Below, piece by piece: positions 1 to 28,992 of a DNA stretch of 64,000 bases; the first letter of the stretch is position 1, and each line of letters begins with the position of its first letter. The position numbers and the translations under genes are program-made. Below the pieces are notes generated by a model. It did no database searches. It had not been told where the DNA came from and saw only the letters and a list, made by a program, of their open reading frames with translations. The stretch is from Paracoccus sp. (in: a-proteobacteria). Lineage in GTDB: Bacteria; Pseudomonadota; Alphaproteobacteria; Rhodobacterales; Rhodobacteraceae. The stretch is from contig NZ_JAUNTO010000009.1 in the NCBI RefSeq assembly GCF_030538655.1, forward strand, positions 12,487 through 76,486, written 5' to 3'.

Positions 1-978
1 TATTCGACGTGGTTGTCGGGCTTTGCGCTGTTGGCGGTGCTGTATTGGGCGGGGGCGCATCTGTATCTGATCGACCCGGCCAAGGCTGATCTGGCCGTCT
101 GGCAGGCGATCCTGATCTCGGCCGGGTCGCTGGCGGTGGGCTGGCTGATTTATGACACGCTGTGCAAATCCCCCTTGGGCGAGCGTCCGACCGTGCTGAT
201 GTTGCTGCTGTTCGCGGCACTGGTGGTGATGGGTTGGGCTTACGATCAGGTGTTCACGGGCCGCGCCGCGCTGTTGCATCTGGGGGCGTTCACGGCGACG
301 ATCATGACCGCGAATGTGTTCCTGATTATCATGCCGAACCAGCGGATCGTCGTGGCCGACCTCAAGGCCGGGCGCACGCCTGATCCGAAATATGGCAAGA
401 TCGCCAAGCTGCGGTCCACGCATAACAACTATCTGACGTTGCCGGTCATCTTTCTGATGCTGTCGAACCATTATCCGCTTGCCTTTGCCAGTGAATACAA
501 CTGGTTGATTGCGGCGCTGGTGTTTCTGATGGGGGTGACGATCCGGCATTTTTTCAACACCATGCACGCCCGCAAGGGGCTGTTGTGGTGGACATGGGCC
601 GTTACCGCGATGCTGTTTGTGGCGATCATGGCGCTGTCATCTGCCGGGCTGCGGCAGGAAAGCTATGATGCGTCGGCGGCCCGCGCGATGACGGCGGTCG
701 AGGCGCGCTTTGCCGCGGCAGCGGGCTTTGACGATGCGGCGGCGGCGGTGATGGGACGCTGTTCGATGTGCCATGCGCGCGAAACCGGCTATCCCGGCAT
801 TCATCACGCGCCCAAGGGGGTGTTTCTGGAAACCCCCGCCGATGTCGCCCGCCATGCCCGCGCGATTTACCTGCAATCCGGCGTGACCGAGGCCATGCCC
901 CCTGCCAACCTGTCCTTTATGGAGCCGGATGAGCGGGACGCGATCATCCGCTGGTATCGTGCGGCCATGCGGGGATGA
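1..978 (+). CDS. puuD: Urate hydroxylase PuuD-like membrane cytochrome c, 5' partial (starts before the window)
   Basis: Hydrophobic N-terminal segments plus a C-terminal CSMCH (CxxCH haem c) motif. It lies next to xdhABC and guaD. The frame is open to base 1. Confidence 0.55.
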   Translation, partial: YSTWLSGFALLAVLYWAGAHLYLIDPAKADLAVWQAILISAGSLAVGWLIYDTLCKSPLGERPTVLMLLLFAALVVMGWAYDQVFTGRAALLHLGAFTATIMTANVFLIIMPNQRIVVADLKAGRTPDPKYGKIAKLRSTHNNYLTLPVIFLMLSNHYPLAFASEYNWLIAALVFLMGVTIRHFFNTMHARKGLLWWTWAVTAMLFVAIMALSSAGLRQESYDASAARAMTAVEARFAAAAGFDDAAAAVMGRCSMCHARETGYPGIHHAPKGVFLETPADVARHARAIYLQSGVTEAMPPANLSFMEPDERDAIIRWYRAAMRG

Positions 979-990
979 TCCGCCCTAAGG

Positions 991-1084
991 CCGGGGGTCA
1001 CACCCCCATTCGTCGGGGAAAAGGTCCACTGGATCTTTTCCTGACCCTCCTCATCCCGTGGGATATTTAAGGACAGAAGATGCG
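991..1084 (+). repeat. Palindromic repeat family, copy 1 (hairpin CCGGGGGTCACACCCCC, then a 45-nt insert, then tail CCCGTGGGATATTTAAGGACAGAAGATGC)
   Basis: Conserved tail shared with 7 other loci. Lies after the puuD stop and before xdhA. Confidence 0.6.
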
Positions 1085-1144
1085 GCAGGTTGTGTTCGGG
1101 GGGCGATGCGGCAAAGCTGGGCAGGTGATGGAAAGAAGCAGGTC

Positions 1145-2602
1145 ATGGGCGCGCTGAGATTTGTTCTGAATGATGATGACGTGGTGCTGGATCAGGTCGG
1201 CGCGCGCGACATGCTGCTGGATTTTTTGCGGCTGGACCGACGGCTGACCGGCACCAAAGAGGGCTGCGCCGAGGGGGACTGTGGCGCCTGCACCGTGCTG
1301 GTGGGGCGGATCACCGGCGCGGGGCTGGTTTACGAGCCGGTGAACGCCTGCATCCGGCTGCTGGCATCCTGCCATGGCTGCCATATCGTGACGGTTGAAC
1401 ATCTGCGTGGTGCGGGCGGCGGGCTGCATCCGGTGCAGCAGGCGCTGGTGGATCATCATGGCAGTCAGTGCGGGTTTTGCACGCCGGGCTTTGTCATGGC
1501 GCTGTATGCTTGGTGGCTGAGCGGCGCGGGTGGCGGTGAAACCGGGGTCGAGACCGCCTTGCAGGGCAATCTGTGCCGCTGCACCGGCTATGCGCCGATC
1601 ATCCGCGCGGCGCTGACTGTCGCGGCGGCGTGCGGGCAGGATGCGGATGCGCTGGCCAAGGGCCGCGAGTCGATGGCGGCGCGGCTGGCGGCGATCCCGC
1701 GCGGGCGGGTGGATGTGTCGCGCGGTGACGACCGGGCGATCATTCCCGCCGATACCGACGATCTGGCTGCGCTGTTGCTGGATCATCCGCAGGCGACCAT
1801 CGTTGCGGGGGCCACCGATGTCGGGCTGTGGGTGACGAAATTCCTGCGCGACATTTCCCCCGCCATTCTGATCGGCCATCTGCTGAAGGACATCGAGGTC
1901 GGTCCCGACAGTCCCGAGATCCGGCTTGGCGCGGGCGTCACCTATGCCGAGGCGCTGCCGCTGATCCTGCGCGACTTTCCCATGCTGCGGGATTACTGGC
2001 TGCGGATCGGCGGGGCGCAGGTGCGCGCCATGGGCACCATCGGTGGCAATATCGCCAATGGCTCGCCCATTGGTGACACGCCGCCGCTGCTGATGGCGCT
2101 TGGCGCGCAGATCGTGTTGCGGCGGGGTGATATGCGGCGGCGGGTGGCGGTGACGGATTTCTTTATCGACTATGGTCAGCAGGACCGTGCACCGGGCGAG
2201 TTTGTGGAACAGATCATCATCCCCCGGCCCGGCCCGGACGCGCGGCTGGCGGCCTATAAGGTCAGCAAGCGGTCGCATTCGGACATCACCTCGGTTGCGG
2301 CGGGGTTCCGGGTGGATGTGCAGGATGGTGTTGTGACCGATGCCGTGCTGGCCTTTGGCGGCATGGCGGGGGTGCCGAAACGCGCCGCGGCGGCCGAGGC
2401 GGCCCTGCGCGGCCAGCCCTTTGCCGAGGCCGCGTTTCTTGCCGCCGCCGCTGCCATCGCGGGCGATTTCACCCCGATGACCGACATGCGTGCCAGTGCC
2501 GCCTATCGCGCGCAGGTGGCGGCCAATCTGATCCGGCGGTTCTGGCTGGAGCAGTCGGGGCAAGCCATGCCGCCGGTGCGGCTGGAGGAGGTGTTGCCAT
2601 GA
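1145..2602 (+). CDS. xdhA: Xanthine dehydrogenase small subunit (2Fe-2S/FAD), XdhA
   Basis: Cys clusters CAEGDCGACTV and CGFCTPG, plus an FAD-binding region. An upstream ATG at 1082 lies inside a repeat element, so 1145 (or 1106) was preferred as the start. Confidence 0.8.
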   Translation: MGALRFVLNDDDVVLDQVGARDMLLDFLRLDRRLTGTKEGCAEGDCGACTVLVGRITGAGLVYEPVNACIRLLASCHGCHIVTVEHLRGAGGGLHPVQQALVDHHGSQCGFCTPGFVMALYAWWLSGAGGGETGVETALQGNLCRCTGYAPIIRAALTVAAACGQDADALAKGRESMAARLAAIPRGRVDVSRGDDRAIIPADTDDLAALLLDHPQATIVAGATDVGLWVTKFLRDISPAILIGHLLKDIEVGPDSPEIRLGAGVTYAEALPLILRDFPMLRDYWLRIGGAQVRAMGTIGGNIANGSPIGDTPPLLMALGAQIVLRRGDMRRRVAVTDFFIDYGQQDRAPGEFVEQIIIPRPGPDARLAAYKVSKRSHSDITSVAAGFRVDVQDGVVTDAVLAFGGMAGVPKRAAAAEAALRGQPFAEAAFLAAAAAIAGDFTPMTDMRASAAYRAQVAANLIRRFWLEQSGQAMPPVRLEEVLP

Positions 2603-4875
2603 TCGGGCGCGATCTGCCGCATGAATCCGCCGCCCTGCATGTGACGGGCCGGGCCGGATATACCGACGATCTGCCGCTGCCCGCCGATGCGCTGCACGCC
2701 TGCCTGGGGCTGTCGGATTGCGCGCATGGCCGGATCACCCGGCTTGATCTGGAGGCGGTGCGGGCTGCGCCGGGGGTGGTCGGCGTGCTGACGGCGGCGG
2801 ATGTGCCGGGTGTCAATGACGTGTCACCGGGCGGACAGGGCGACGACCCGATCTTTGCCGATGGGGTGGTGCAGTTCTGGGGGCAGCCGCTGTTTGCCGT
2901 CATCGCGCAGACCCGCGATCAGGCCCGCCGCGCGGCGCGTCTGGCGCAGGTGGATTACGACCCGCTGCCACATGTGCTGACCGCGCAAGCGGCTCGGACG
3001 GCGGATGCCGACTATGTCACCGCGCCGCTGACCCTGCGGCGCGGGAACGCCGAGACCGACATGGCCCGCGCCCCGCATCGCATATCCGGGCGCATGGAAA
3101 TCGGCGGGCAGGATCACTTTTATCTGGAAGGGCAGATCGCCCTTGCCCTGCCGGGTGAGGGGGACGAGGTATCCCTGCATGTGTCCACCCAGCACCCCAG
3201 CGAGGTGCAGCATATGGTCGCCCATGCGCTGAACGTGGCCAGCCATGCGGTAACGGTCTCGGTGCGGCGGATGGGGGGCGGCTTTGGCGGCAAGGAAACG
3301 CAGATGAACCTGTTCGCCTGCGTTGCGGCCATTGCCGCGAAGCGGTTTGGCCGGGCGGTGAAAATTCGCCCCGACCGTGACGATGACATGACCGCCACCG
3401 GCAAACGGCATGATTTCGTGGTGGATTATCAGATAGGCTTTGACGATCAGGGCCGGATTGCCGCCGTTCAGGCCGATCTGGCCGCGCGCTGTGGCTTTTC
3501 GGCGGATCTGTCGGGGCCGGTGACGGATCGGGCGCTGTTTCATGTGGATAACGCCTATTTCTATCCCTCGGTTCGGCTGTCCAGCCATCCGATGCGCACG
3601 AATACGGTCAGCAACACCGCCTTTCGCGGCTTTGGCGGCCCGCAAGGCGTGCTGACCGCCGAACGCATGATCGAGGAAATCGCCTATGCCACGGGCCGTG
3701 ACACGCTGGCGGTGCGGCGCGCCAACCTGTATCGCCCCGGCGACCTGACCCCCTATCACCAGCAGATCGAGGATGACCTGCTGCCCGGCCTGTTCGATCA
3801 GCTGGAACAGGGCTGCGATTACGCCGCCCGGCGGCAGGCGGTGCTGGACTGGAATTCACGGGGCGGAGTGATCCGGCGCGGTATCGCGCTGACTCCGGTC
3901 AAGTTCGGGATCAGCTTTACCGCGACGCATTTCAATCAGGCCGGGGCCTTGGTGCATGTCTATGCCGACGGGTCCATCGCGCTGAACCACGGTGGCACGG
4001 AAATGGGGCAGGGGCTGCACACCAAGGTGGCGCAGGTGGTGGCCGATGCGTTCCAATGCCCGCTGGACCGGGTGCGGATCACCGCCACATCCACCGGCAA
4101 GGTGCCCAATACCTCGGCCACGGCGGCGTCCAGTGGCACCGACCTGAACGGCATGGCGGCGTTGGATGCCGCTGACCAGATCAAGGCGCGGCTGGTGGCC
4201 TTTGTCGCCGAGCGCTGGCAGTGCCCGCCGGATCAGGTGCGCTTTGCGCCGGGGCAGATCATGGCGGGCGATACGGCGATTCCGTGGGAACAGGCGATCC
4301 GCGCCGCCTATATGGCGCGGGTGCATCTGTCGGCGGCGGGGTTTTACAAGACGCCAAAGATCCACTGGGACCGGGCCACGGGCAAGGGGCGTCCGTTCTA
4401 TTACTTTGCCTGCGGTGTCGCCTGTTCCGAAGTGGCGGTGGATACGCTGACCGGCGAATATCGTATCCTGCGCGCCGACATTCTGCATGATGTGGGCCGC
4501 AGCCTGAACCCGGCGCTGGACATCGGCCAGATCGAAGGGGCCTTTGTGCAGGGCGCGGGCTGGCTGACCAGCGAGGAACTGTGGTGGTCTGATGACGGAC
4601 GGCTGCGCACGCATGCGCCTTCGACCTACAAGATACCGCTGGCATCCGACCGCCCGCGCGTCTTTAACGTGATGCTGGCCGATACCGTCAATGCCGAACC
4701 GACCGTGGGCCGGTCCAAGGCGGTGGGCGAGCCGCCCTTCATGCTGGGTATTTCCGTGTTCGAGGCGATCGGCCATGCTGTGGCTTCGGTTGCGGATTAC
4801 CGCCGCGCGCCGCGTCTGGATGCGCCCGCCACGCCGGAACGGGTGCTGATGGCCATCGAACGGTTGCGCCGATGA
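2599..4875 (+). CDS. xdhB: Xanthine dehydrogenase molybdopterin-binding large subunit, XdhB
   Basis: 758 aa aldehyde-oxidase/xanthine-dehydrogenase a/b hammerhead and MoCo-binding signature. The start overlaps the xdhA stop (ATGA). Confidence 0.85.
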   Translation: MIGRDLPHESAALHVTGRAGYTDDLPLPADALHACLGLSDCAHGRITRLDLEAVRAAPGVVGVLTAADVPGVNDVSPGGQGDDPIFADGVVQFWGQPLFAVIAQTRDQARRAARLAQVDYDPLPHVLTAQAARTADADYVTAPLTLRRGNAETDMARAPHRISGRMEIGGQDHFYLEGQIALALPGEGDEVSLHVSTQHPSEVQHMVAHALNVASHAVTVSVRRMGGGFGGKETQMNLFACVAAIAAKRFGRAVKIRPDRDDDMTATGKRHDFVVDYQIGFDDQGRIAAVQADLAARCGFSADLSGPVTDRALFHVDNAYFYPSVRLSSHPMRTNTVSNTAFRGFGGPQGVLTAERMIEEIAYATGRDTLAVRRANLYRPGDLTPYHQQIEDDLLPGLFDQLEQGCDYAARRQAVLDWNSRGGVIRRGIALTPVKFGISFTATHFNQAGALVHVYADGSIALNHGGTEMGQGLHTKVAQVVADAFQCPLDRVRITATSTGKVPNTSATAASSGTDLNGMAALDAADQIKARLVAFVAERWQCPPDQVRFAPGQIMAGDTAIPWEQAIRAAYMARVHLSAAGFYKTPKIHWDRATGKGRPFYYFACGVACSEVAVDTLTGEYRILRADILHDVGRSLNPALDIGQIEGAFVQGAGWLTSEELWWSDDGRLRTHAPSTYKIPLASDRPRVFNVMLADTVNAEPTVGRSKAVGEPPFMLGISVFEAIGHAVASVADYRRAPRLDAPATPERVLMAIERLRR

Positions 4876-5612
4876 TCCGGGTGCGGATCGAGACGGCGCA
4901 GGGGTCCACCCCGCGCGAGGCGGGGGCGGTGATGATCGTCACCACCGATGCCACGCAGGGCAGCATTGGCGGTGGCGCGCTGGAATATATGGCCATCGAC
5001 CGCGCCCGGCAGATGCTGGGACAAGGCGAAACCCGCGCCCGGATGGATGTGCCGTTGGGGCCAGAGATCGGCCAGTGCTGTGGCGGCCGCCTCACCCTGT
5101 CGCTGACCGCCGTCGATGTGATGCCGCCCGAACCGCCGCGCCCCGAGGTGCTGATCTTTGGCGCCGGGCATGTGGGCCGTGCCCTGGCCCGCGCGCTGGC
5201 GCTGTTGCCGCTGGCCCCGGTGTTGATCGACAGCCGCGCCGATGAGTTGGCGCTTGCGCCCGGTCTGCCCGCGCGGCTGACCCCCTTGCCCGAGGCCGAG
5301 ATCCGCGCCGCCCGCCCCGGCAGCGCCGTGGTGATCGCCACCCACGGTCACGCGCTGGATTTTCTGCTGGCGGCCGAGGCGCTGGCCCGTGCCGACCTGC
5401 CTTATATCGGCATGATCGGCAGCGCCACGAAACGCGCCCAGTTCCACCGCTTTGCCCGCGCGCGCGGCATCGACCCGGCCCAACTGACCTGCCCCATCGG
5501 CGCGGGCGGGTCGCCTGACAAACGGCCGGCAGTCATTGCCGCGATGACCGCCGCTGAAATCATCACCACCCTGAACGCGTCTTGCCTGAAGAAATACCCA
5601 TGCGACATCTGA
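4872..5612 (+). CDS. xdhC: Xanthine dehydrogenase accessory/chaperone protein XdhC
   Basis: XdhC/CoxI family N-terminus (TPREAGAVMIV...GSIGGGALE) and a Rossmann-like C-terminus. Translationally coupled to xdhB. Confidence 0.7.
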   Translation: MIRVRIETAQGSTPREAGAVMIVTTDATQGSIGGGALEYMAIDRARQMLGQGETRARMDVPLGPEIGQCCGGRLTLSLTAVDVMPPEPPRPEVLIFGAGHVGRALARALALLPLAPVLIDSRADELALAPGLPARLTPLPEAEIRAARPGSAVVIATHGHALDFLLAAEALARADLPYIGMIGSATKRAQFHRFARARGIDPAQLTCPIGAGGSPDKRPAVIAAMTAAEIITTLNASCLKKYPCDI

Positions 5613-6877
5613 TCCGGGGCCGAGTCCTTGGCTTTCACGCCGACCCCGCCGATACGGCGGATAACCACCGTTACCACCCCGACGGGGCGGTGATCCTTGC
5701 CGATGGCCGGATCGAGGCCGTGGGTGATTACGCCGATCTGCGCGCTGACGGTCTGCCCGAAACCGATCATCGGCCGCATCTGATCCTGCCGGGCTTTATC
5801 GACCCGCATATCCATTTCCCGCAGATTCAGGTGATCGCCAGTTGGGCGCGGCAATTGCTGGACTGGCTGAACGATTACACTTTTCCGGCGGAATCGGAAT
5901 ATGCCGATCCGGTCCATGCGACGCGGATGGCGGGGCTGTTTCTGGATCAGATGATCGCCCATGGCACCACCAGCGCCGCCGCCTTTTGTTCCGTCCACAA
6001 AACCAGCGCCGAGGCGCTGTTCACCGCCGCCGAGGCGCGCAATATGGCGATGATCGCCGGTAAGGTGATGATGGACCGCAACGCCATCCCCGCCGTTCAC
6101 GACACCGCGCAAGCCAGCTATGACGACAGTGCCGCGCTGATCCGTGACTGGCACGGGCGCGGGCGGCTGCGCTATGCGATCACACCGCGCTTTGCGATCA
6201 CCTCGACCCCGGAACAGCTTGACGCGGCGGGGGCCTTGGCGCGGGAAAACCCCGCTTGCCATATCCAGACGCATCTGTCTGAAAATCACGACGAAATCGC
6301 CTATACCCTGTCGCTGTATCCGCAGGCGCGGGATTATCTGGACATCTATGACCAGTATGGCCTGCTGGGGCCGCGCAGCCTGATGGGCCATTGCCTGCAT
6401 CTGACCCCGCGTGAAATCGCCCGGATGGCTGAAACCGGCTGCCGGGCGATTTTCTGCCCGACCTCGAATCTGTTTCTGGGGTCGGGCCTGTTCGATCAGG
6501 CGGGCCTGCGTGCGGCGGGAATCACCACCGGCATTGCCAGTGATGTCGGCGGCGGCACCAGCTTTTCCATGCTGCAAACCATGGCCGAGGGTTACAAGGT
6601 GCAGCAGATGCACCGCCACCGGATGCACCCCTTTGCGACCTTCCACTGGGCCACGCGCGGCAATGCCATCGCCCTTGGGATCGAGGATCGTATCGGCACG
6701 CTGGCCCCCGGCAGCGACGCCGATCTGGTGGTGCTGAATGCCCGCGCCACCCCCGCCATGGCGCTGCGGATGGAACGGGCCGAAACGCTGGCCGAGGAAT
6801 TATTCGTTCTGCAAACCATGGGCGATGATCGTGCGGTGGCGGAAACCTATGTTGCGGGCCGGGCGATGAAGCGCTGA
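5600..6877 (+). CDS. guaD: Guanine deaminase
   Basis: PGFIDPHIHFPQ metal-binding motif of amidohydrolase-family guanine deaminases. Start chosen at MRHLIRG (5582 is an alternative). Confidence 0.75.
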   Translation: MRHLIRGRVLGFHADPADTADNHRYHPDGAVILADGRIEAVGDYADLRADGLPETDHRPHLILPGFIDPHIHFPQIQVIASWARQLLDWLNDYTFPAESEYADPVHATRMAGLFLDQMIAHGTTSAAAFCSVHKTSAEALFTAAEARNMAMIAGKVMMDRNAIPAVHDTAQASYDDSAALIRDWHGRGRLRYAITPRFAITSTPEQLDAAGALARENPACHIQTHLSENHDEIAYTLSLYPQARDYLDIYDQYGLLGPRSLMGHCLHLTPREIARMAETGCRAIFCPTSNLFLGSGLFDQAGLRAAGITTGIASDVGGGTSFSMLQTMAEGYKVQQMHRHRMHPFATFHWATRGNAIALGIEDRIGTLAPGSDADLVVLNARATPAMALRMERAETLAEELFVLQTMGDDRAVAETYVAGRAMKR

Positions 6878-7307
6878 GGGCGCGTCGGAAAGAGGCTGCT
6901 GATCGCCGGAGTGTTCGTTGTCGCTGTCGGCTGGCCTGCGCGTGGATACCGGCGACCCGATCAGCGGGATGACCGATCCCCCACCCGCGCGATTGCGACG
7001 GTCTGCCTGGCGGGGCGCGGGCCTTGCCGCAGACGGCTTGACGGATCGCCGCTGGACCCGGACGCGTCATTGCGTCTGTATCGGGCGGGGAAATACCCGC
7101 TCTATCATCCGCGGGGCGCACATGGGGATCCTGTCATCATTATGGGCCACCCGAGCGTGCCGAGGATGTGGCGCCGGTGGTCTGGCAATGTTACGACAGC
7201 ATCACCCCGGCCAGATCGCGCGTCATCTCATGCCGCCCTGATCCGCGCCCCTTGGCCTGCGCGGTGTTTTCCGTTATCGCCACCAGCGGACAATCAAAGG
7301 GCTGACC

Positions 7308-8480
7308 GTGTTCTATCCGCTGGCCACAACCACATGGGATCAGGCCGAAACCGACGCGTTGCACGACGTGATCGGCTCGGGCCGGTTCACCATGGGCGAG
7401 CGTGTCGCCGCCTTCGAGGCGGGTTTTGCCGCGCATTTCGGGGCGCGGTTCGCGGTGATGGTGTCATCCGGGTCGGCGGCCAATCTGCTGGGGCTGGCGG
7501 CGGCGTTTTATCACCCCGATCTGGGCTGGCGGACGGGGGATGAGGTGATCGTTCCGGCGGTCAGCTGGTCCACCACCTATTTCCCGGTCAGTCAGATGGG
7601 GCTGCGGCTGCGGTTTGTGGATGTGCAGCCCGATACGCTGAATATCGATGCGGATCAGGTGGCAGCGGCGATCACCCCGCGCACCCGCGCCGTGCTGGCG
7701 GTGAACCTGCTGGGCAACCCCGCCGCACTGACCCGGCTGCGCGCGATCTGCGACGATGCGGGGCTGGTGCTGATCGAGGATAATTGCGAATCCATGGGTG
7801 CGCGGCTGGACGGGCGCGCGGCGGGGACGTTCGGGCTGTTCGGCACGTTTTCGATGTTTTTCTCGCATCATATCTGCACGATGGAAGGGGGAGTTGTGCT
7901 GACCGATGACCGCCGCCTGTATGACAATATGCTGTCCCTGCGTGCCCACGGCTGGACGCGCGGCCTGCCAGCTGACACGCATCTGCCCGTTGATCCCGAC
8001 CCGTTCGCGGCGCAGTTCCGCTTTGTGCTGCCCGGCTGGAACCTGCGCCCGCTGGAAATGTCGGGCGCGGTGGGGCTGACACAACTGGCCAAGCTGGATG
8101 GCTTCGTGGCGGCGCGGCGCGCGAATGCCGCGCAGTTTCAGCGCCTGTTCGCCGGGCATCCTGATGTGGATATTCAGGTCGAAACCGGCGAATCGTCGTG
8201 GTTCGGCTTTGCCCTGTTGCTGAAGGGCGCGCTGGCCGGGCGGCGGGCGGAACTGGTTGGGGCGCTGACAGCAGCGGGCATCGAATCGCGGCCCATTGTC
8301 GCCGGAAATTTCCTGAAAAACCCGGTGATCGCGTATCTGGATCACATCGCAGCCCCTGCCCCCGTTGCCGACCGGATCGACAGCGACGGGTTGTTCACCG
8401 GCAATCACCATTACCCGATTACCGCACAGCTTGACCGGCTGGCGCAGGTGATCGACGCCGTGGCAATGGGCAGGGCATGA
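7308..8480 (+). CDS. DegT/DnrJ/EryC1 family enzyme, ColD/E1-like hexose 3-dehydratase candidate (His replaces the PLP lysine)
   Basis: Aminotransferase fold motifs [13 protein letters not shown] and [15 protein letters not shown]. The conserved Lys position is His. Followed by gmd, manC and fcl with 4-nt overlaps. Confidence 0.55.
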
Positions 8481-9550
8481 CGAAACGCGCGCTGATAACC
8501 GGCATCACCGGGCAGGACGGCAGCTATCTGGCCGAACTGCTGCTGGCCAAGGGATACGAGGTTCACGGGATCAAGCGCCGGTCCTCCAGCTTTAACACCG
8601 GGCGGATCGACCATCTGTCGATTGATCCGCATTCCGGCAGCCGCCTGCATCTGCATTACGGCGATATGGTTGACGCCACGACGCTGACCCGCATCATCGC
8701 CGACACCCGCCCGGACGAGATCTATAACCTTGCCGCGCAAAGCCATGTCCGCGTCAGCTTTGATCAGCCCGAATATACCGCCGAGGTGGATGCCATCGGC
8801 CCCCTGCGGATGCTGGAGGCGATCCGCCTGCTGGGGATGGCGGATCAGGTGCGGTTTTATCAGGCGTCCACATCCGAACTGTATGGCGGGCAACAGGGCG
8901 GCGCGCTGGACGAGGACACGCCCTTTGCCCCCCGGTCCCCTTATGCGGCGGCCAAGCTGTATGCGTTCTGGACCGTGCGGAATTACCGCGAGGGCTATGG
9001 GATGCACGCCAGTAACGGCATCCTGTTCAACCACGAAAGCCCGCGCCGCGGCGAAACCTTTGTCACCCGCAAGATCAGCCGGGCGGTGGCGGCGATTTCT
9101 CTGGGTCTGCAAGATACGCTGTATCTGGGCAATCTGGATGCGCTGCGCGACTGGGGCCATGCCCGCGATTATGCCGAAGGAATGTGGCTGATGTTGCAGC
9201 AAGATCAGCCCGGAGATTATGTTCTGGCCACCGGGGAATGTCATTCGGTGCGCGATTTCTGCCGCCTTGCTTTTGCGCAGGTGGGCATCTCGCTGGACTG
9301 GCGCGGGCAGGGCGTGGACGAGACGGGCCATGACGCCGACACCGGCGAAACCCTGATCCGCATTGATCCGGTTTACTTCCGCCCGACCGAGGTGCCACGG
9401 CTTTTAGGCAATCCGTCGCGCGCACGGGAACGTCTGGGCTGGACGCACCGCACCGATTTTGCGAATTTGGTCGCCGAAATGGTGGCCGAGGACCGGCGCC
9501 TGCTGGAATCAGAGCGGCTGGCACGCCGCACATTCGGAGTTCTGGAATGA
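8477..9550 (+). CDS. gmd: GDP-mannose 4,6-dehydratase
   Basis: [18 protein letters not shown]-terminus and the canonical Gmd short-chain dehydrogenase fold. Confidence 0.85.
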
Positions 9551-10974
9551 GTAACGATATTATCCCCGTGTTGTTGGCGGGCGGGTCTGGCACCCGTCTT
9601 TGGCCGGTGTCGCGCAAAAGTTTCCCCAAACAATTCGCCCATCTGACCGGCGATTTTTCGCTGTTTCAGGATTCGGCGCGGCGGTTGTCGGGCGTGGGCT
9701 ATGCCGCGCCGGTGGTGATGACCGGGGCTGATTTCCGCTTTATCGTGGCGGAACAGCTGGATCAGATCGGCATGACGCCCGACGCCATCGTGATCGAACC
9801 CTCGCCCCGCAACACCGCCCCGGCGGTTCTGGCGGCGGCGCTGATGGCGGCGCGGCGTGACCCCAAGGCGCTGTTGCTGGTCGCGCCAAGCGATCACGTG
9901 ATCCCTGATGCGGCGGCCTTTCGCGCGGCGGTGGAAACCGGCGCGGTGGCGGCGCGGGATGGCAAGATCGTCACCTTTGGCATCACCCCGACCCGGCCCG
10001 AGACGGGTTACGGTTATCTTGAGGTTGCAGGTTCTGGCGATGGCGCGCTGCCGCTGCGGCGGTTCGTGGAAAAGCCCGATGCGGCGCGCGCGGCGGAAAT
10101 GCTGGCCGAGGGCAATTACCTGTGGAACGCGGGGATTTTCCTGTTTGCGGCCGATACGATGATTCAGGCCTTCCGCGACCATGCGCCTGCCTATCTGGAA
10201 CCCGTGCAGGCAGCCGTGGATCAGGCGCAGACGGACTTGGGCTTTTTGCGGCTGGCGGCGGACCCGTGGAACGGGCTGGGCGATGAATCCATCGACTATG
10301 CGGTGATGGAAAAGGCCGGGAATCTGGCCGTGGTCGCCTATTCCGCGCATTGGTCGGACTTGGGCGGCTGGGATGCCGTCTGGCGCGAGGAGCAGGGCGA
10401 TACCCCCGCCGAACGCGGTGTGGTGACGGATGACCAATCGACCGCGATTGACTGTGACAATGTGCTGCTGCGCTGTGAGCATGACGATTTTCAGGTCGTC
10501 GGCATCGGTCTGCGCGATGTGATGGTCGTCGCCACCAATGACGCCGTTCTGGTCGCCGACATGAACCGCGCGCAGGATGTGCGGCAGGCGGTATCGGCAC
10601 TCAAGGCCAAGGGCGCTAAACAGGCTGAATCATTCCGCCGTGATCATCGCCCCTGGGGCTGGTTCGAAACGCTGGCGCTGGACGACCGTTTTCAGGTCAA
10701 GCGCATCGTGGTCAAACCCGGCGCGGCGCTGTCGCTGCAAAGCCATGTTCACCGCGCCGAACATTGGGTCGTCGTCAGCGGCACCGCGCGGGTGACGGTC
10801 GATGACAAGGTGACGCTGGTGACGGAAAACCAGTCGATTTATGTGCCGCTTGGCTCGGTCCACCGGATGGAAAACCCCGGCAAGGTGCCGATGGTGCTGA
10901 TCGAGGTGCAGACCGGCGCCTATCTGGGCGAGGATGACATCATTCGCTACGAAGACGTTTACGCGCGCAGCTGA
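9547..10974 (+). CDS. manC: Mannose-1-phosphate guanylyltransferase / mannose-6-phosphate isomerase
   Basis: Nucleotidyltransferase N-terminal domain with [11 protein letters not shown], plus a C-terminal cupin. Confidence 0.8.
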
Positions 10975-11888
10975 TGCGGGTCTGGCTGACCGGCGGGAAC
11001 GGGCTTTTGGGCCGCGCGATCCGGCGGCAGGCGGGCGGCGTGACCTTGCTGGCCCCAAGCCGGGCGGAGCTGGACCTGACCGACCGCGCGGCGGTGGCGG
11101 CGTGGCTGGCGGCGAACCCGGTCGATGCGGTGATCCACGCCGCCGCGCGCGTGGGCGGGATCGCAGCCAATATCGCTGATCCGGCGGGGTTTCTGACCGA
11201 TAACCTGCGCATGAACGATGCCGTCATCACCGGCGCCGATGCTGCGGGGGTGGGGCGGCTGCTGTTCATCGGGTCAAGCTGCGTCTATCCACGCGATTAC
11301 CGGCAGCCGCTGGGTGAAACCGACCTGATGGCCGCCCCGCTGGAACCCACGAACGAGGGTTACGCGCTGGCCAAGCTGGCCGGGATGCGGCTGTGCGATT
11401 ACATCTCGGGGTCGGGGTCGGGGCGGGCCTATCGCAGCCTGATCCCCTGCAACCTGTTTGGCGTGGACGATCACTTTGGCACGGCAGGCGCGCATCTGCT
11501 GGCGGCGGCGATCCATAAGATCGTCGCGGCGCAGACCGCCGGGGCCGATACGGTCGAGATCTGGGGCAGCGGCACGGCCCGGCGCGAGTTTCTGGAGGCC
11601 GACCATCTGGCCCGCTTTGTGCTGGACGCCTTGCCCCGGCTGGCCGATCTGCCGTCGGTGCTGAACATCGGCGCGGGCGTGGATCGCAGCGTGGCCGAAT
11701 GGTATGGGCTGATCGCGGAACTGGCGGGTTGGCATGGGCGCTTTACCTTTGATCTGACCCGGCCCGAGGGGATGCGGGCCAAGCTGCTGTCCAGCGCGCG
11801 GGCCGCGCAGCACGGTTACGCCCCGCCCGCCGACATCCGCCCGGCGCTGTCGCGCGCCATTGCCGCCTGCCGTGAAAAGATGACATGA
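10974..11888 (+). CDS. fcl: GDP-L-fucose synthase family 3,5-epimerase/4-reductase (Fcl, or ColC if the pathway makes colitose)
   Basis: Fcl-like motifs LLFIGSSCVYP and EPTNEGYALAK. TGATG overlap with manC. Confidence 0.7.
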   Translation: MRVWLTGGNGLLGRAIRRQAGGVTLLAPSRAELDLTDRAAVAAWLAANPVDAVIHAAARVGGIAANIADPAGFLTDNLRMNDAVITGADAAGVGRLLFIGSSCVYPRDYRQPLGETDLMAAPLEPTNEGYALAKLAGMRLCDYISGSGSGRAYRSLIPCNLFGVDDHFGTAGAHLLAAAIHKIVAAQTAGADTVEIWGSGTARREFLEADHLARFVLDALPRLADLPSVLNIGAGVDRSVAEWYGLIAELAGWHGRFTFDLTRPEGMRAKLLSSARAAQHGYAPPADIRPALSRAIAACREKMT

Positions 11889-13090
11889 GCACGGTTCTGA
11901 TTCTTGGGGCCGGCATGGTCGGCGTGTCCAGCGCGCTGGCCTTGCAGGAATGCGGGCATGAGGTCACGCTGATCGACCGGCGCGGGCCGGGGCAGGAAAC
12001 CAGCTTTGGCAATGCCGGGTTCATTCAGACCGAGGCGGTGGAGCCCTACGCCATGCCGCTGGCCCTGCGCGATCTGGCGCGCATCGGCTTGGGGCGCAGC
12101 GGCGATGTGCGCTGGACGCCTGGCGGTGTGCTGGCGCAGGCGCGTGCGTTGTTGGCCTATGCCGGGCATTCGCGATCTGCGCAATTCGCCCGCGCCGTGG
12201 CGACCTATCGCCGCCTGATCCCCGCATCCGCCACGGCCCATGCCCCATGGATTGCGGCGGCGGGGGCCGATAATCTGATCCGGCGTGACGGTTATCTGGA
12301 AATCCACCGCACCCCGGCCGGAATGGCGCGGGCGGCGGTGATGGCGGATCGGTTCTCCCGCGATTACGACGTTCCCGCCGAGGTGATGGACGCCGATGCG
12401 CTGGCTGCGGCCGAGCCGGACTTGCGCCAGCGGCTGGCCGGGGCGGTGCTGTGGGGCGGCACATGGACCTGTGCCGATCCGGGCGGGCTGGTGGCGGCCT
12501 ATGCGGCGCTGTTCGTGGCGCGCGGCGGGCAGATCGTGCAGGGCGATGCCGGTGATCTGGCGCGCGACGGTGCGGGGTGGCGCGCGGCGGGTGTTTCGGC
12601 GCAGCACGCGGTGATCGCGCTTGGCCCATGGTCGCCCGGCCTTTGCGCCCGGTTCGGGCTGCGGGTGCCGATGATCCTGAAACGCGGCTATCACCAGCAT
12701 TTTCAGGGCGCTGCACCGTTGAACCGTCCGCTGGTGGATGCCGATCATGGTGTGGTGCTGACGCCGATGCGGGCGGGGCTGCGCATCTGCACCGCCGCCG
12801 ATCTGCGCCGCACGCCGCACCCCGCGCCGCCGCAACTGGCGCGCGGGCTGTCGGCGGCGCGGGGGCTGTTGGGGGTGGGTGATCCGGCTGGCCCGGTCTG
12901 GTCGGGACAGCGCCCTTGTATGCCCGACATGCTGCCGGTTGTGGGCGCGGTGCCCGGCCAGCCGGGCCTTTGGGCGCATTTCGGGCACGGGCATCAGGGC
13001 TTTACCCTTGGTCCGGTCACAGCGGCGATTCTGGCCGAGGCGATGGACGGTGGCGGCTGGCCCGAACTTGCGCCCGCGCGGCTGGGCTGA
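11885..13090 (+). CDS. FAD-dependent oxidoreductase, DadA/DAO family
   Basis: GAGMVGVSSAL dinucleotide-binding motif, NAGFI, and a DadA-like C-terminus. The start overlaps the fcl stop. Confidence 0.6.
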   Translation: MSTVLILGAGMVGVSSALALQECGHEVTLIDRRGPGQETSFGNAGFIQTEAVEPYAMPLALRDLARIGLGRSGDVRWTPGGVLAQARALLAYAGHSRSAQFARAVATYRRLIPASATAHAPWIAAAGADNLIRRDGYLEIHRTPAGMARAAVMADRFSRDYDVPAEVMDADALAAAEPDLRQRLAGAVLWGGTWTCADPGGLVAAYAALFVARGGQIVQGDAGDLARDGAGWRAAGVSAQHAVIALGPWSPGLCARFGLRVPMILKRGYHQHFQGAAPLNRPLVDADHGVVLTPMRAGLRICTAADLRRTPHPAPPQLARGLSAARGLLGVGDPAGPVWSGQRPCMPDMLPVVGAVPGQPGLWAHFGHGHQGFTLGPVTAAILAEAMDGGGWPELAPARLG

Positions 13091-17628: not shown

Positions 17629-18447
17629 TTATCGGCCCAGTTTTGCGTGAACCTCGTCCAGATCAACCTCGTCCTTGGGCATCTTGTTGTCGGGGTTGTC
17701 GAAATCATAGCGGAACAGCTGGAAATCCTTTTTGTAGATTTCCCAGACAAGATGCTGTGACAGGTCGTCGAAATATTCGCTGACCTTATATGCCCGCTTT
17801 GGCCCGTGCCCTTCAGATTCGTTGAACTTGGGCACTTGTTCCACGTCCATGGTTACGGGGGTATCGGCGGCATCCAGAACGCGCTGCATCCCTTCGTTGA
17901 ACTTTTCGGTGAAGAAAATCTGATCGTAGCGACCGCCATTCACAATGAACGTGGCGATATGGCCCGACATGGCCGACCAGTGGATGTCGGGTTCCATCGG
18001 GCGGCGCCAGCGGATGGTGTCGCGCGCGAACAGCAGAAAGCGGCGGAAGGATTTGATCTGATCAAAGTCAAAGCCGTCATCCGGGCTGCCCACCTCGACC
18101 CCGTAGCGCTGGATCAGTTGCGGCACCAGATTGCCGCGATAGCGGCGGCCGTTGCGCTGAATCCCGGCGATCTTGTCGAAGAACGATGACAGGATGCGGC
18201 TGTAGGGGTTGCGCACGCAGGTGAACACCACGGCGTCATGTGCGCGCACGGCGCGTTCGATCGGCGCTTCGCTTTCGCGGCGTGCCCATTTGTGCAGCCC
18301 CTCCCTGGCATCGTGAATGTCGCCATCAAAATAGCTGCCATGATCGGAGTGGAACATGATTTGACCGATGGACGAACAGGCACATTTCGGGACCACGCGA
18401 TAGATCAGGCTTTCGCTTTCGGTCATCCAGACGCCGGGAAATCCCAT
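17629..18447 (-). CDS. Carbohydrate sulfotransferase (Sulfotransfer_2-like)
   Basis: 5'-PSB-like YRVVPKCACSSI and 3'-PB-like RNPYSRILSSF motifs. Low-GC codon usage. Start chosen at 18447 for its AAAAGG RBS. Confidence 0.6.
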   Translation of the reverse strand: MGFPGVWMTESESLIYRVVPKCACSSIGQIMFHSDHGSYFDGDIHDAREGLHKWARRESEAPIERAVRAHDAVVFTCVRNPYSRILSSFFDKIAGIQRNGRRYRGNLVPQLIQRYGVEVGSPDDGFDFDQIKSFRRFLLFARDTIRWRRPMEPDIHWSAMSGHIATFIVNGGRYDQIFFTEKFNEGMQRVLDAADTPVTMDVEQVPKFNESEGHGPKRAYKVSEYFDDLSQHLVWEIYKKDFQLFRYDFDNPDNKMPKDEVDLDEVHAKLGR

Positions 18448-18587
18448 GTTATTCTGCCTTTTCTGGCTGTTATGCCTGCCGGTGCTTGCCGAGACGGCCA
18501 AAATCATTCACAGACACAAAGCAAATCGGACCGGAATTTTCAACGGGTTCGGTCAAAAGCGGCTCATATTCTTGCGGATGGACCCCT

Positions 18588-20165
18588 ATGGCGCGGATTG
18601 CCTTTATCCTGCTGTGTCACAAGGACCCCGAAGGTATCGTGGCGCAGGCTCGCCGACTGACCGAGACGGGTGATTTTGTTGCGATCCATTTCGACGCTCA
18701 TGCAAAACCGGCGGATTACGCCCATATCCGCGCTGAACTGGCCGATAACCCGCGTGTGACATTCGCGCGCAAGCGGGTGCGCTGTGGCTGGGGCGAATGG
18801 TCGCTGGTTGCCGCCACGATCGAGGCGGTGCGCGTGGCGGCGGCTCATTTTCCGCAGGCCACGCATTTTTATATGCTGTCGGGCGATTGCATGCCGGTGA
18901 AATCAGCCGGGTTCGCCCGCGATCTGCTGGATCGGGATGATTGCGATTATATTGAATCTTTTGACTTTTTCGAAAGCGACTGGATCAAGACCGGGATCAA
19001 GGAAGAACGGTTGATCTATCGCCACTGGTTCAACGAGCGTCGCCAGAAAACCTGGTTCTATCGCAGCATGGAATGGCAGCAGCGCATGGGCTGGTCGCGG
19101 CCCATCCCCGAGGGTTTGCGGATGATGATCGGCAGCCAATGGTGGTGCCTGCGCCGCGAAACGATCGAGAAAATCCTGACCTTCTGCGACAGCCGCCGCG
19201 ACATCCTGCGGTTTTTCGCGACCACATGGATTCCGGACGAGACGTTCTTTCAGACGCTGGTGCCGCATCTGGTGCCGCGCGATCAGATCCGCACCCGGAC
19301 GCTGACCTTTCTGATGTTTACCGATTACGGAATGCCGGTGACGTTTTATAACGATCACTATGACCTGCTGCTGGGGCAGGATTATCTGTTCGCGCGCAAG
19401 ATCAGCCCCGAGGCGCTGGACCTGAAGGAACGGTTGGGCCAGTTATGGCAATCGGGGCGGCGCGACTTTGCCATCTCGGGCGAGGGGCGGGAATTGCACG
19501 GCTTTCTGACCCGGCAGGGGCGGATCGGTCTGCGCTTTGGTCGCCGCGCGTGGGAGGCGTCGGCGCAGGTGGGCAGCGGTAACGTGCTGCATGTCATCCT
19601 GTGCAAAAAATGGCATTTCGCTAAACGGCTGACGCAGGCAATCCGCGACCGGACCGGGATTCCGGCGGTGGATTATCTGTTCAACGAATCCGAGGCGCAT
19701 CTGCCTGATCTGGGCGGGCTGGAACAGGGCTGGGACAAGCGCAACCACCATCGCCGCGCCATGATCGCGATGCTGATGCAGCATTTTGGTGCCGGGCGGC
19801 TGGTGATGTGTCTGGACCCGGCGAATGCGGGGCTTCTGGCCGATCTGGCGGCCGACCGCGCCGATCTGCGGGTGCTGCATATCGACTGTGATTTCAGCGA
19901 CGATTACCTGCGCGGCCATGTGGCCCGCATTGGTCTGGTCGGCCCCGACACCTCGACCGAGCGGATTGATTCGCTGATCCCGGTCATGCGCCGCGATCTG
20001 GCGCATGAGGTCGAAACCCTGCGCGACATGACCTTGCCCCGGTTCGGGATGATTCGCGTAGATGCCGACAGTCAGGCCAATGCCGCCGCACTGGCGCGGT
20101 TTCTGGATGTTTCCGACGAACTGGCGCATGATCTGGCCGAAACGCCGCATCTGTTTGCCGATTGA
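18588..20165 (+). CDS. GT14 (core-2/I-branching)-like glycosyltransferase with an unknown ~290 aa C-terminal domain
   Basis: Branch-family-like N-terminus (LLCHKD...HFD...YMLSGDCMP...WWCL). The C-terminal half has no recognisable motif. Confidence 0.5.
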   Translation: MARIAFILLCHKDPEGIVAQARRLTETGDFVAIHFDAHAKPADYAHIRAELADNPRVTFARKRVRCGWGEWSLVAATIEAVRVAAAHFPQATHFYMLSGDCMPVKSAGFARDLLDRDDCDYIESFDFFESDWIKTGIKEERLIYRHWFNERRQKTWFYRSMEWQQRMGWSRPIPEGLRMMIGSQWWCLRRETIEKILTFCDSRRDILRFFATTWIPDETFFQTLVPHLVPRDQIRTRTLTFLMFTDYGMPVTFYNDHYDLLLGQDYLFARKISPEALDLKERLGQLWQSGRRDFAISGEGRELHGFLTRQGRIGLRFGRRAWEASAQVGSGNVLHVILCKKWHFAKRLTQAIRDRTGIPAVDYLFNESEAHLPDLGGLEQGWDKRNHHRRAMIAMLMQHFGAGRLVMCLDPANAGLLADLAADRADLRVLHIDCDFSDDYLRGHVARIGLVGPDTSTERIDSLIPVMRRDLAHEVETLRDMTLPRFGMIRVDADSQANAAALARFLDVSDELAHDLAETPHLFAD

Positions 20166-20176
20166 AAGGACAGCCT

Positions 20177-20557
20177 ATGACCCCGGCTTATGACGATCAG
20201 AACATCTTTGCCCGTATCCTGCGTGGCGAGATTCCCTGCGACAAGGTGGCTGAAAATGACCACGCACTGGCGTTTCGCGACATCAACCCCGCTGCGCCGG
20301 TGCATGTTCTGGTAATCCCCAAGGGGGCTTATGTCAGCTTTGACGATTTCTGCGCCCGCGCCAGCGAGGCGGAACTGGCCGGTTTTCTGCGCCTCAGCGG
20401 TCAGGTTGCCGAGGCCGAGGGCGTCGCGCTGAAACGCGGCGCGGGTTTTCGCGCGATCACCAACGCCGGGGAACACGGTGTTCAGGAAGTGCCGCATTTC
20501 CATCTGCATATTCTGGGCGGGCGCGGCATGGGGCCGATGTTGACGCGCCGCGACTGA
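20177..20557 (+). CDS. HIT (histidine triad) family nucleotide hydrolase/transferase
   Basis: C-terminal HFHLHILGG histidine triad. The RBS AAAGGA overlaps the upstream stop. Confidence 0.75.
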   Translation: MTPAYDDQNIFARILRGEIPCDKVAENDHALAFRDINPAAPVHVLVIPKGAYVSFDDFCARASEAELAGFLRLSGQVAEAEGVALKRGAGFRAITNAGEHGVQEVPHFHLHILGGRGMGPMLTRRD

Positions 20558-20734
20558 TTGCGTCCCGCGATGCCGGGGGGGCATTCTGCCCCCCCGGCCC
20601 CTGAGGGCGGTTCAGGTCGCAGCAGTGATCCACCATGGATTGCGCTTGCACTCCAATTTGGTTGCAAACGCGCGGTTTTGGTCCGGCATACTGGCCCCCG
20701 GTTGCCCATGCGTCCGGGGGCGGTCCTGTGCAGA

Positions 20735-23469: not shown

Positions 23470-23491
23470 AATCAGCCGGCGCGGGGCGGGA

Positions 23492-24535
23492 TTATCGGTT
23501 ATTGTCGCTGTCCAAGCGGGATTCGTCGCAGATCAGGTCGGGTTCGGCCTCGTCCGCGGTATGTGCAGGATCGCCGAATTCCGTCGCCAGATCGCCCGAA
23601 AAGAAATGCGACATCACCAAAGATACGCCGAACGGGTTCACATTGCGCAGGTCCGGTTCATAAAACATCGCCCGCGACGGATGGGCCGAGATGATCTCGT
23701 ATGAGGGGAAATAGGCCACATCATCCAGCGTCGAGGCCAGATCGCCCGCCACCGCCCGCAGCACCGATTTGGAATAGCTGGTCGCCACCATGACATGATC
23801 GCGCGAAGCCGTCGCCGCCAGTGGAACCGGCGAGACGGTCAGCAGCATCCGCGCCGACGGATTGACCGACCGCAGCCGGTCCCAGAACCCGCGCATATCG
23901 CGATCCACCCCGCCATAACGCAGATTGCGGAACCGATAGCGCGCCTTGTCATATGTGCCTGCCACGGTGCCGGGGGCCATCGGGAACATGGTGCCGTCCT
24001 CGATCAGTTCCCAGCCTTCGGTCAGGCCCATGGTGAACACGAACACGTCCAGTTCCGCGAACATCCGCCGCACCGCCGCCAGATGGGCTGCGCGCAATGC
24101 GATCACGTCTTCGGACGTGGCCTGCCCTACCGGGTCGATCCCCGGCCGCAGCGCATCGAAAAACCGCCCGTCGCGTTCCCACACCGTTTCGGCGGGGCTG
24201 CGGTTGCCATGCGCTTCGTCAAACAGCTGGATCAACTGGCGCGAGGTATAGATGTTGCCATAGCGACAGGAAAACACGCCATAGCCCCAGCGGCGAGCCT
24301 CGTTTTCCGATGCAAACACAGGCGGGGCGGGTTCCATATCCATGAATGCCGCGCCGCGGCGGGCCAGATTGTTGCCGATATGCTGGGCAAAGCAACTGCC
24401 CGCCGTCGCCACCCGGTCGGTGCGGCGCAGGGGCATCGGCTGCCACAAATCCGTCAGATCGGCGTAATGGCGGCTGCCGACGGCGGCTTTCCAGAAGGCC
24501 TTTTCCGGCTTGTTCTGATAGGGGTGACGGGTCAT
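23492..24535 (-). CDS. GSCFA family protein
   Basis: Eponymous ATAGSCFAQHI motif. Confidence 0.6.
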   Translation of the reverse strand: MTRHPYQNKPEKAFWKAAVGSRHYADLTDLWQPMPLRRTDRVATAGSCFAQHIGNNLARRGAAFMDMEPAPPVFASENEARRWGYGVFSCRYGNIYTSRQLIQLFDEAHGNRSPAETVWERDGRFFDALRPGIDPVGQATSEDVIALRAAHLAAVRRMFAELDVFVFTMGLTEGWELIEDGTMFPMAPGTVAGTYDKARYRFRNLRYGGVDRDMRGFWDRLRSVNPSARMLLTVSPVPLAATASRDHVMVATSYSKSVLRAVAGDLASTLDDVAYFPSYEIISAHPSRAMFYEPDLRNVNPFGVSLVMSHFFSGDLATEFGDPAHTADEAEPDLICDESRLDSDNNR

Positions 24536-28983: not shown

Positions 28984-28992
28984 AACCCGGCC

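Follow-up and report, generated by a model that had tools for sequence, protein, structure and literature searches.

Does a Paracoccus operon that lies among purine-catabolism and housekeeping genes encode a complete route to colitose, a rare immunogenic dideoxy sugar? The question is raised by a 64,000-nt stretch of DNA from Paracoccus sp. (assembly GCF_030538655.1, contig NZ_JAUNTO010000009.1, positions 12,487 to 76,486 of the forward strand), which is referred to here as the window. The original prediction was that a DegT-family gene in this stretch, together with its neighbours, makes GDP-colitose or a related GDP-3,6-dideoxyhexose. We found that the genes colD, gmd, manC, and colC (Table 1) most likely constitute a self-contained and translationally coupled cassette for GDP-L-colitose (GDP-3,6-dideoxy-L-xylo-hexose). 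This reading is based on homology, catalytic residues, clade membership, and gene linkage, from which we infer both the enzyme activities and the C4/C5 stereochemistry of the product.

Table 1. Features of the candidate colitose cassette and its immediate surroundings, in positions of the window.
Feature	Position	Strand	Description
Intergenic region 5' of colD	6878..7307	+	430 bp; presumed promoter region
colD	7308..8480	+	GTG start, 390 aa; GDP-4-keto-6-deoxy-D-mannose 3-dehydratase, PMP/PLP-dependent (predicted)
gmd	8477..9550	+	357 aa; GDP-mannose 4,6-dehydratase (predicted); TIGR01472
manC	9547..10974	+	475 aa; bifunctional mannose-6-phosphate isomerase / mannose-1-phosphate guanylyltransferase (predicted); TIGR01479
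colC	10974..11888	+	304 aa; GDP-4-keto-3,6-dideoxy-D-mannose C5-epimerase/C4-reductase = GDP-L-colitose synthase (predicted)
DAO-family FAD oxidoreductase gene	11885..13090	+	401 aa; Pfam DAO

Coordinates and model scores placed gmd, manC, and an Fcl-like gene beside the DegT gene, as had been foreseen, and the short overlaps of 1–4 nt said to link the four genes were borne out. The colD/gmd and gmd/manC junctions are both ATGA (4-nt overlaps), and manC and colC share 1 nt at TGATG. A Shine-Dalgarno-like motif, AAGGG, is located 8 nt 5' of the GTG start of colD. The promoter scan revealed no sigma-70-like site in the 430-bp region 5' of colD, and no credible promoter or terminator bounding the operon was found by promoter and terminator scanning. 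The length of this spacer is not conserved (117 bp in P. tegillarcae vs 430 bp here), and an Rfam scan of the whole window returned one tRNA only, with no family 5' of colD. The cassette is flanked by the purine-catabolism and housekeeping genes mentioned above, and no O-antigen cluster encloses it.

The colD product matches the Pfam family DegT_DnrJ_EryC1 (PF01041, 266 bits) and is named “DegT/DnrJ/EryC1/StrS family aminotransferase” in the public record. It is 51% identical to E. coli O55 ColD over the full length (BLASTP), and HMMER aligned its residues 3–382 with residues 6–389 of the E. coli O55 ColD structure, PDB 2gms, at 425 bits (E = 2e-126). The E. coli O55:H7 enzyme (WbdK; PDB 2gms, 2gmu, 2r0t, 3b8x, and 3gr9) shares the fold and is of nearly the same size (388 aa, as compared to 390 aa in the window), and the window protein retains both its catalytic Ser-His dyad and the residues that line up with the active site of ColD. 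The 15-residue stretch described in the original prediction, in which His replaces the Schiff-base Lys of aminotransferases, is present exactly as claimed. By HMMER alignment, the first His of the SHH motif is His187 in the window protein, and it aligns with the catalytic His188 of ColD, which is the Lys position of aminotransferases. This position was checked via the E. coli ColD point mutants 3b8x (H188N), 2r0t (H188K), and 3gr9 (S187N/H188K), and the window protein has no Lys there.

Ser186 and His187 align with ColD Ser187 and His188, and both are invariant in an alignment of 11 ColD homologues (A1). All 80 related loci show the signature SHHIxTMEGG, and A1 has no variation at the SHH residues; the His substitution is thus no chance feature. 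Six further residues, Asp158, Glu161, Ser182, Arg218, Asn245, and Arg328, align with ColD Asp159, Glu162, Ser183, Arg219, Asn248, and Arg331, which we take to be cofactor- and GDP-binding residues; these six positions are invariant across the 11 homologues as well.

The DegT fold, the PMP dependence, and the replacement of Lys by His are likewise features of E1 (AscC/DdhC/RfbH; PDB 3bb8 and 3bcx), the Yersinia CDP-6-deoxy-L-threo-D-glycero-4-hexulose 3-dehydrase, and the protein had been called “ColD/E1-like”. The [2Fe-2S] cluster of E1 is bound by four Cys, and the enzyme requires the reductase E3 and acts on a CDP-sugar (PMC8987622). The top NCBIfam match of the window protein by name is in fact RfbH/E1 (NF011936, 236 bits), no ColD-specific model being returned, as would be expected if colD encoded such an Fe-S- and E3-requiring CDP-sugar 3-dehydrase. 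However, this score is below the 423-bit cut-off of the model, and the true ColD proteins of E. coli and Yersinia likewise score 263 and 264 bits. The PDB entries of E1 gave 158–162 bits, as compared to 425 bits for ColD, and the cysteine-rich stretch of E1, whose absence was to be checked, is indeed missing: the window protein has 3 Cys in total, at positions 148, 160, and 190, none of which is opposite that stretch in the alignment. No E3-like gene adjoins the cassette, and the neighbouring genes lead to GDP-mannose derivatives rather than to CDP-glucose derivatives. A 4-aminotransferase, e.g., a perosamine synthase, is disfavoured by His187 at the Lys position and by a score of 124.6 bits against perosamine synthase (PDB 3bn1). 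The alignments effectively refute an E1-type or aminotransferase identity, to which we assign a negligible likelihood, and the comparisons show that the colD product is of the ColD type, not of the E1 type. The ColD-type part of the earlier label stands, while the generic E1 part does not.

The substrate of a ColD-type enzyme is a separate matter. ColD-type enzymes of Campylobacter jejuni, which share 62–67% identity with ColD from E. coli and Yersinia, use GDP-heptose (PMC10440746), so the identity of the substrate here is read from the gene context and not from the ColD sequence. In the C. jejuni HS:5/HS:11 pathway, a ColD-type PLP/PMP enzyme likewise eliminates the 3-OH group of a GDP-4-keto-6-deoxy sugar, but the pathway starts from GDP-D-glycero-D-manno-heptose and has a separate epimerase and C4-reductase (PMC10440746), whereas the window encodes ManC, Gmd, and one bifunctional Fcl-type enzyme. 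The gmd product passed the equivalog cut-off of TIGR01472 (553.6 bits, cut-off 415), and its best PDB matches, at 493 and 478 bits, are all GDP-mannose 4,6-dehydratases. The manC product passed that of TIGR01479, the mannose-1-phosphate guanylyltransferase/PMI model (580 bits, cut-off 373), and contains the Pfam domains NTP_transferase, ManC beta-helix, and MannoseP_isomer. In addition, Pfam scans of most predicted genes at 1–44.6 kb detected no family of the heptose pathway, e.g., GmhA, HddA, or HddC. These features of the window argue against GDP-heptose as the substrate, as in C. jejuni HS:5, and GDP-3,6-dideoxyheptose as the product, which we regard as very improbable.

The fourth gene had been described as “Fcl/ColC-type”. 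Its product has the same extended SDR fold as Fcl (WcaG/GMER; PDB 1bsv), and it retains both the Ser/Tyr/Lys triad of SDR enzymes and the Cys/His pair used in epimerisation, with Ser101, Cys103, Tyr130, Lys134, and His174 corresponding to Ser107, Cys109, Tyr136, Lys140, and His179 of E. coli Fcl in the alignment. Sequence identity of the protein is 38–39% with ColC of E. coli and Yersinia and 40% with E. coli Fcl. Because pairwise identity cannot separate ColC from Fcl, we built a tree labelled by gene context and calibrated the Fcl model. The Fcl equivalog NF047922 has a cut-off of 500 bits; a fragment of E. coli Fcl reached 522.8 bits, whereas the window protein failed with 268.1 bits and true ColC proteins scored 304 and 315 bits. 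In a neighbour-joining tree of 18 sequences labelled by colD linkage, including six gmd-only Fcl genes, the colD-linked and gmd-only Fcl-like genes were split in 500/500 bootstraps, and the window protein was placed in the colD-linked clade together with ColC from E. coli O55 (WbdJ) and from the Yersinia pseudotuberculosis group. The N-terminal motifs differ as well, being LTGGxGxxG in ColC and AGH(R/K)GMVG in Fcl, and linkage to colD is a constant feature of the ColC gene. These results assign the fourth gene as a ColC-type gene, not Fcl, so that one half of the earlier description is retained and the other is dropped. In related genomes, ColC-type genes carry the PGAP label “GDP-L-fucose synthase”.

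The configuration of the product depends on this last enzyme. A ColC-like enzyme that reduces the other C4 face, or that skips C5 epimerisation, would give another GDP-3,6-dideoxyhexose instead of GDP-L-colitose, with the chemistry unchanged as far as GDP-4-keto-3,6-dideoxy-D-mannose. The low identity of the window enzyme to characterised-type ColC is consistent with such an outcome, and we know of no ColC structure or specificity signature. For example, C. jejuni C4-reductases that are 41–44% identical to each other have opposite C4 stereochemistry (PMC10440746); given this divergence and the 38–39% identity of the window ColC, the L-xylo configuration is one that we infer. On the other side, the window protein lies inside the monophyletic clade with E. 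coli O55 and Yersinia ColC, and the epimerase acid/base pair, Cys103 and His174, is retained. We therefore consider a different isomer unlikely, and GDP-L-colitose remains the preferred product.

ColD homology, the ColC clade, and linkage to gmd and manC all support the predicted GDP-colitose pathway. In this pathway, ManC would convert fructose-6-phosphate to mannose-6-phosphate and would then form GDP-mannose after the action of a phosphomannomutase encoded elsewhere; no manB is present in the window. Gmd would yield GDP-4-keto-6-deoxy-D-mannose. According to the mechanism reviewed for ColD (PMC8987622), the PMP cofactor would form a Schiff base with the C4 keto group of this sugar, His187 would take the C4' proton, and the 3-OH would leave. 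Hydrolysis of the enamine would release GDP-4-keto-3,6-dideoxy-D-mannose and ammonia, and PMP would be restored from L-glutamate, so that ColD would need neither an Fe-S cluster nor an E3 reductase. ColC would finally combine C5 epimerisation with reduction of C4 by NAD(P)H to give GDP-L-colitose.

The four enzyme activities are also encoded in E. coli O55 and the Yersinia pseudotuberculosis group. The gene order is different, being colD-gmd-manC-colC in the window, gmd-colC-colD(-manC) in Yersinia, and colC-colD in E. coli O55. Unlike in these systems, the window cassette is outside an O-antigen cluster, has no GT11 WbgN-type colitosyltransferase nearby, and has a GC content of ~65%.

The ColD signature was found in at least 593 species-representative genomes from many phyla. 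Among the 80 best genome loci with ColD in these representatives, a ColC-like gene is present on the same strand as ColD in 78, and gmd is linked to ColD in 72. Of the 80 scanned loci, 8 have the order colD-gmd-manC-colC, all of them from Paracoccus and close relatives, as do two additional loci, L001 and L002; this gene order is the only feature that is specific to Paracoccus and its close relatives. Cultured carriers of the cassette include P. tegillarcae, P. endophyticus, and P. siganidrum. ColD-ColC pairs were seen in Rhodobacterales, Microbacteriaceae, Bdellovibrionota, and marine group II archaea. The statement that colitose is mainly known from enteric and Vibrio O-antigens is valid for chemically analysed glycans only and does not extend to the gene pairs, which are widespread across phyla. 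Aeromonas trota and Colwellia are further reported sources of colitose (PMC3210612, PMC8914368), and no paper linking the sugar to the genus Paracoccus was found in the literature. The pathway is already known and is not rare, and the Paracoccus cassette is a further case of it. As the NCBIfam scans that we ran returned no dedicated model for either ColD or ColC, ColD-ColC pairs appear to be systematically under-annotated.

A DAO-family gene, absent from the original prediction, shares 4 nt with colC, and the two genes are probably transcribed together. Its product scored 177 bits with Pfam DAO and 128.8 bits with an NCBIfam D-amino-acid dehydrogenase subfamily model, which is below the cut-off of 383. 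The overlap with colC is kept only in L001, a close relative; in P. tegillarcae, colC is not followed by this gene, and none of the other Paracoccus loci examined contained it. Since it follows colC in L001 only, the DAO-family gene does not belong to the conserved cassette, and we rejected it as a fifth member of the pathway.

Further downstream, at 17.6–34 kb, a polysaccharide locus encodes sulfotransferase-like proteins, a Branch/DUF5928 protein, and GT2 enzymes, and its product is apparently sulfated and ABC-exported. No Pfam family was assigned to the unknown ORFs of this locus at E values up to 10. In other Paracoccus, the cassette is not accompanied by this locus, except for its first two genes in L001, where the fetched locus ends after these two genes; it is thus not assignable as the acceptor pathway. 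When WbgN and three other GT11 proteins were used as tblastn queries, no GT11-type colitosyltransferase was detected in the window. Because none is located beside the cassette, an undescribed type of transferase may add the sugar. It is a speculative and rather unlikely scenario that such a transferase adds colitose, perhaps to the polysaccharide encoded 6–22 kb downstream, or that a divergent ColC makes another 3,6-dideoxyhexose isomer.

With this analysis, four genes are given specific names, colD, gmd, manC, and colC. The under-annotation of ColD-ColC pairs is a useful point for curation, and it raises no new biological question. For the organism, the cassette leads to the prediction that some Paracoccus strains may display colitose on a surface glycan.

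We found that the enzyme encoded by the first gene of the cassette is ColD-type. It belongs to the DegT family (PF01041, 266 bits) and carries the His-for-Lys motif just as the original prediction described it. The top matches in a search of the whole PDB were four entries for E. coli O55 ColD (2gms, 3b8x, 2r0t, and 3gr9; 420–425 bits, residues 3–382), with lower scores for Yersinia E1 (3bb8 and 3bcx, 158–162 bits), ArnB (126 bits), and perosamine synthase (124 bits). The anticipated match to E. coli O55 ColD was a full one, at 51% identity (197/384 residues, BLASTP) and with His187 on His188. Since the ColD mutant entries in the PDB differ from wild type at Ser187 and His188 only, the alignments place Ser186-His187 of the window protein there directly. 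In an alignment of 11 ColD homologues (mean column identity 68%), the invariant columns include D158, E161, S182, S186, H187, R218, N245, and R328, equivalent in order to D159, E162, S183, S187, H188, R219, N248, and R331 of E. coli ColD; all but S187 and H188, six positions, are presumably cofactor- and GDP-contact residues of ColD.

E1 and SpnQ have a four-cysteine [2Fe-2S] motif, while ColD is without it; in ColD, the enamine intermediate is hydrolysed and PMP is regenerated from glutamate (PMC8987622). The Fe-S cysteines of E1 proved absent, as had been expected: the E1 cysteine-rich stretch (RDCYCAPGCDNTCKK) aligns opposite a shorter, Cys-free stretch of the window protein, whose only three cysteines are at positions 148, 160, and 190. 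A ColD-specific model was not among the NCBIfam matches; the best match, RfbH, scored 236 bits, below its 423-bit cut-off, as likewise did genuine E. coli and Yersinia ColD (263 and 264 bits).

The fourth gene had been described as Fcl/ColC-type; the ColC part stood and the Fcl part did not, and judged by its sequence the gene is ColC-type. Its product can be aligned to E. coli Fcl, with the catalytic residues Ser101, Tyr130, Lys134, Cys103, and His174 kept. Pairwise identity was of no use as a separator (39% to E. coli O55 ColC and 38% to Yersinia similis ColC, both taken from the loci around ColD, versus 40% to E. coli Fcl). Scores from the Fcl equivalog model NF047922 (cut-off 500) did separate the two: 268 bits for the window protein, true ColC 304 and 315, four other colD-linked homologues 276–307, and an E. 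coli Fcl fragment 523. For a tree, alphaproteobacterial “GDP-L-fucose synthase” genes were taken from plasmids and chromids and their context was read: four (P. ferrooxidans, Sulfitobacter, P. seriniphilus, and Chelatococcus) lie in gmd-X-DegT triplets, and five (Cereibacter, Rhizobium, P. aestuarii, Azospirillum, and Bradyrhizobium) are without colD. The neighbour-joining tree (18 sequences) separated colD-linked from unlinked genes in 500/500 bootstraps, with the window protein inside the colD-linked clade together with E. coli and Yersinia ColC. Most of this clade, the window protein included, has the N-terminal nucleotide-binding motif LTGGxGxxG, whereas Fcl has AGH(R/K)GMVG or a close variant.

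Gmd (553.6 bits, cut-off 415) and ManC (580 bits, cut-off 373) pass their equivalog models, and the closest solved structures to Gmd are all GDP-mannose 4,6-dehydratases (493 and 478 bits). With a ColD-type enzyme and a predicted ColC-type fourth gene, the GDP-colitose reading was right, and the product is probably GDP-L-colitose. In C. jejuni, ColD-type enzymes 62–67% identical to ColD use GDP-heptose, and reductases about 41–44% identical to one another differ in C4 stereochemistry (PMC10440746). The substrate assignment therefore relies on ManC and Gmd being present, and the L-xylo configuration is predicted from clade membership only. We found no paper in the literature connecting colitose with Paracoccus.

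The four genes overlap by 4, 4, and 1 nt (ATGA, ATGA, and TGATG), as originally described. The operon has the same GC content as its flanks (65.2%; window about 65%), and scans for Rfam elements, promoters, and terminators gave neither an Rfam element nor a clear promoter or terminator at its boundaries. Downstream lie the DAO-family gene, ndk, a hydrolase gene, fabD, fabG, and an acyl carrier protein gene. The DAO-family gene is probably co-transcribed with colC, because its start and the colC stop codon overlap by 4 nt, identically in the close relative L001; in P. tegillarcae it does not follow colC, and none of the other Paracoccus loci examined yielded it. Its product is D-amino-acid-dehydrogenase-like, at a score below the NCBIfam cut-off.

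Features of the window and of compared loci (L handles, own coordinates)
Feature	Position	Strand	Remark
Purine-catabolism cluster	13-6877	+	urate oxidase N-terminal domain protein, xdhA, xdhB, xdhC, guanine-deaminase-like amidohydrolase; directly upstream of cassette
ORF 1, colD	7308-8480	+	390 aa, DegT family
ORF 2, gmd	8477-9550	+	
ORF 3, manC	9547-10974	+	
ORF 4, ColC-type (by sequence)	10974-11888	+	
ORF 5	11885-13090	+	DAO-family FAD oxidoreductase
Polysaccharide locus	17629-34087		comprises the next nine features
Sulfotransfer_2	17629-18507	-	sulfotransferase
Branch+DUF5928	18486-20165	+	
HIT gene			
499-aa ORF	21970-23469	-	no family match; N-terminal GQTKAGSTS resembles PAPS-binding loop
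GSCFA gene			
Double-GT2 protein	25485-27611	-	
GT2	27604-28983	-	
TviB-like UDP-GlcNAc 6-dehydrogenase	28993-30255	-	
ABC exporter	32345-34087	-	
337-aa ORF	30618-31631	+	probably spurious
TPR-repeat protein, L003	13696-15864	-	
TPR-repeat protein, L023	5633-7846	+	
TPR-repeat protein, L024	12826-14808	-	
TPR-repeat protein, L027			
TPR-repeat protein, L028	6580-8814	+	
TPR-repeat protein, L014	5951-8158	+	

A GT11 homologue of WbgN, the E. coli O55 alpha-1,2-colitosyltransferase (PMC11987014), was not found within the 64-kb window. The polysaccharide locus at 17.6–34 kb could produce a sulfated capsule or EPS. It has no established link to the cassette and, L001 excepted, does not accompany it in other Paracoccus. 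The 337-aa ORF (Gly/Arg/Ala/Gln-rich, low GC3 of 0.67, no family match) is probably not a gene but a reading frame arising spuriously in GC-rich DNA, which leaves about 1.3 kb between the TviB-like and CAF17-like genes without explanation. A protein family of 660–745 aa, with about 500 N-terminal residues lacking a Pfam match and C-terminal TPR repeats, is absent from the window; it adjoins the colitose cassette in five Rhodobacterales and also a plain gmd-fcl pair on a P. aestuarii plasmid, which makes it a candidate transferase using GDP-L-fucose or GDP-L-colitose.

Public annotation of a Paracoccus sp. MAG protein 100% identical to the window ColD calls it only “DegT/DnrJ/EryC1/StrS family aminotransferase”. 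The same label is given to the ColD-type genes of four plasmid or chromid records (L008, L011, L012, and L013), where ColC-type genes are labelled “GDP-L-fucose synthase”; in three of these, RefSeq records, the labels are PGAP annotation. No ColD or ColC equivalog model was among the matches in NCBIfam scans, so colitose cassettes are systematically under-annotated.

The ColD signature peptides SHHI[SCA]TME and EDNCESMG were looked for in one genome of each species, which gave at least 599 matches, at least 593 of them confirmed. The best 80 of these at least 593 loci span Rhodobacterales, Hyphomicrobiales, Microbacteriaceae and other Actinomycetota, Bdellovibrionota, Acidobacteriota, Armatimonadetes, Bacteroidota, Gamma- and Betaproteobacteria, and Poseidoniales archaea. 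Among these 80, all keep SHHIxTMEGG, 78 have a same-strand ColC-like gene (directly adjacent in 68), 72 have gmd, 28 manC, and 7 a GT11 gene. Their usual order is gmd-colC-colD; colD-gmd-manC-colC occurs in 8/80 (Paracoccus and close relatives), plus the window, L001, and L002. The cassette lies 3' of xdhABC and guanine deaminase in five Paracoccus genomes (the window, L001, L002, L025, and L026), and in the remaining genomes with the colD-gmd-manC-colC order it is located elsewhere. The ColD homologues of marine group II archaea (Candidatus Poseidoniales; L078, L079, L085, and L090, from MAGs and single-cell assemblies) are 54–56% identical to the window ColD, each adjoined by a ColC-like gene.

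A genome-wide pathway survey names L-colitose only as missing from TACK archaea (PMC7725333), which implies wide prediction elsewhere. The original prediction held colitose to be mainly enteric and Vibrio; chemically, it is also found in Aeromonas trota and Colwellia (PMC3210612, PMC8914368), and its genes are widespread. The window cassette is a routine orthologue of this well-understood pathway.
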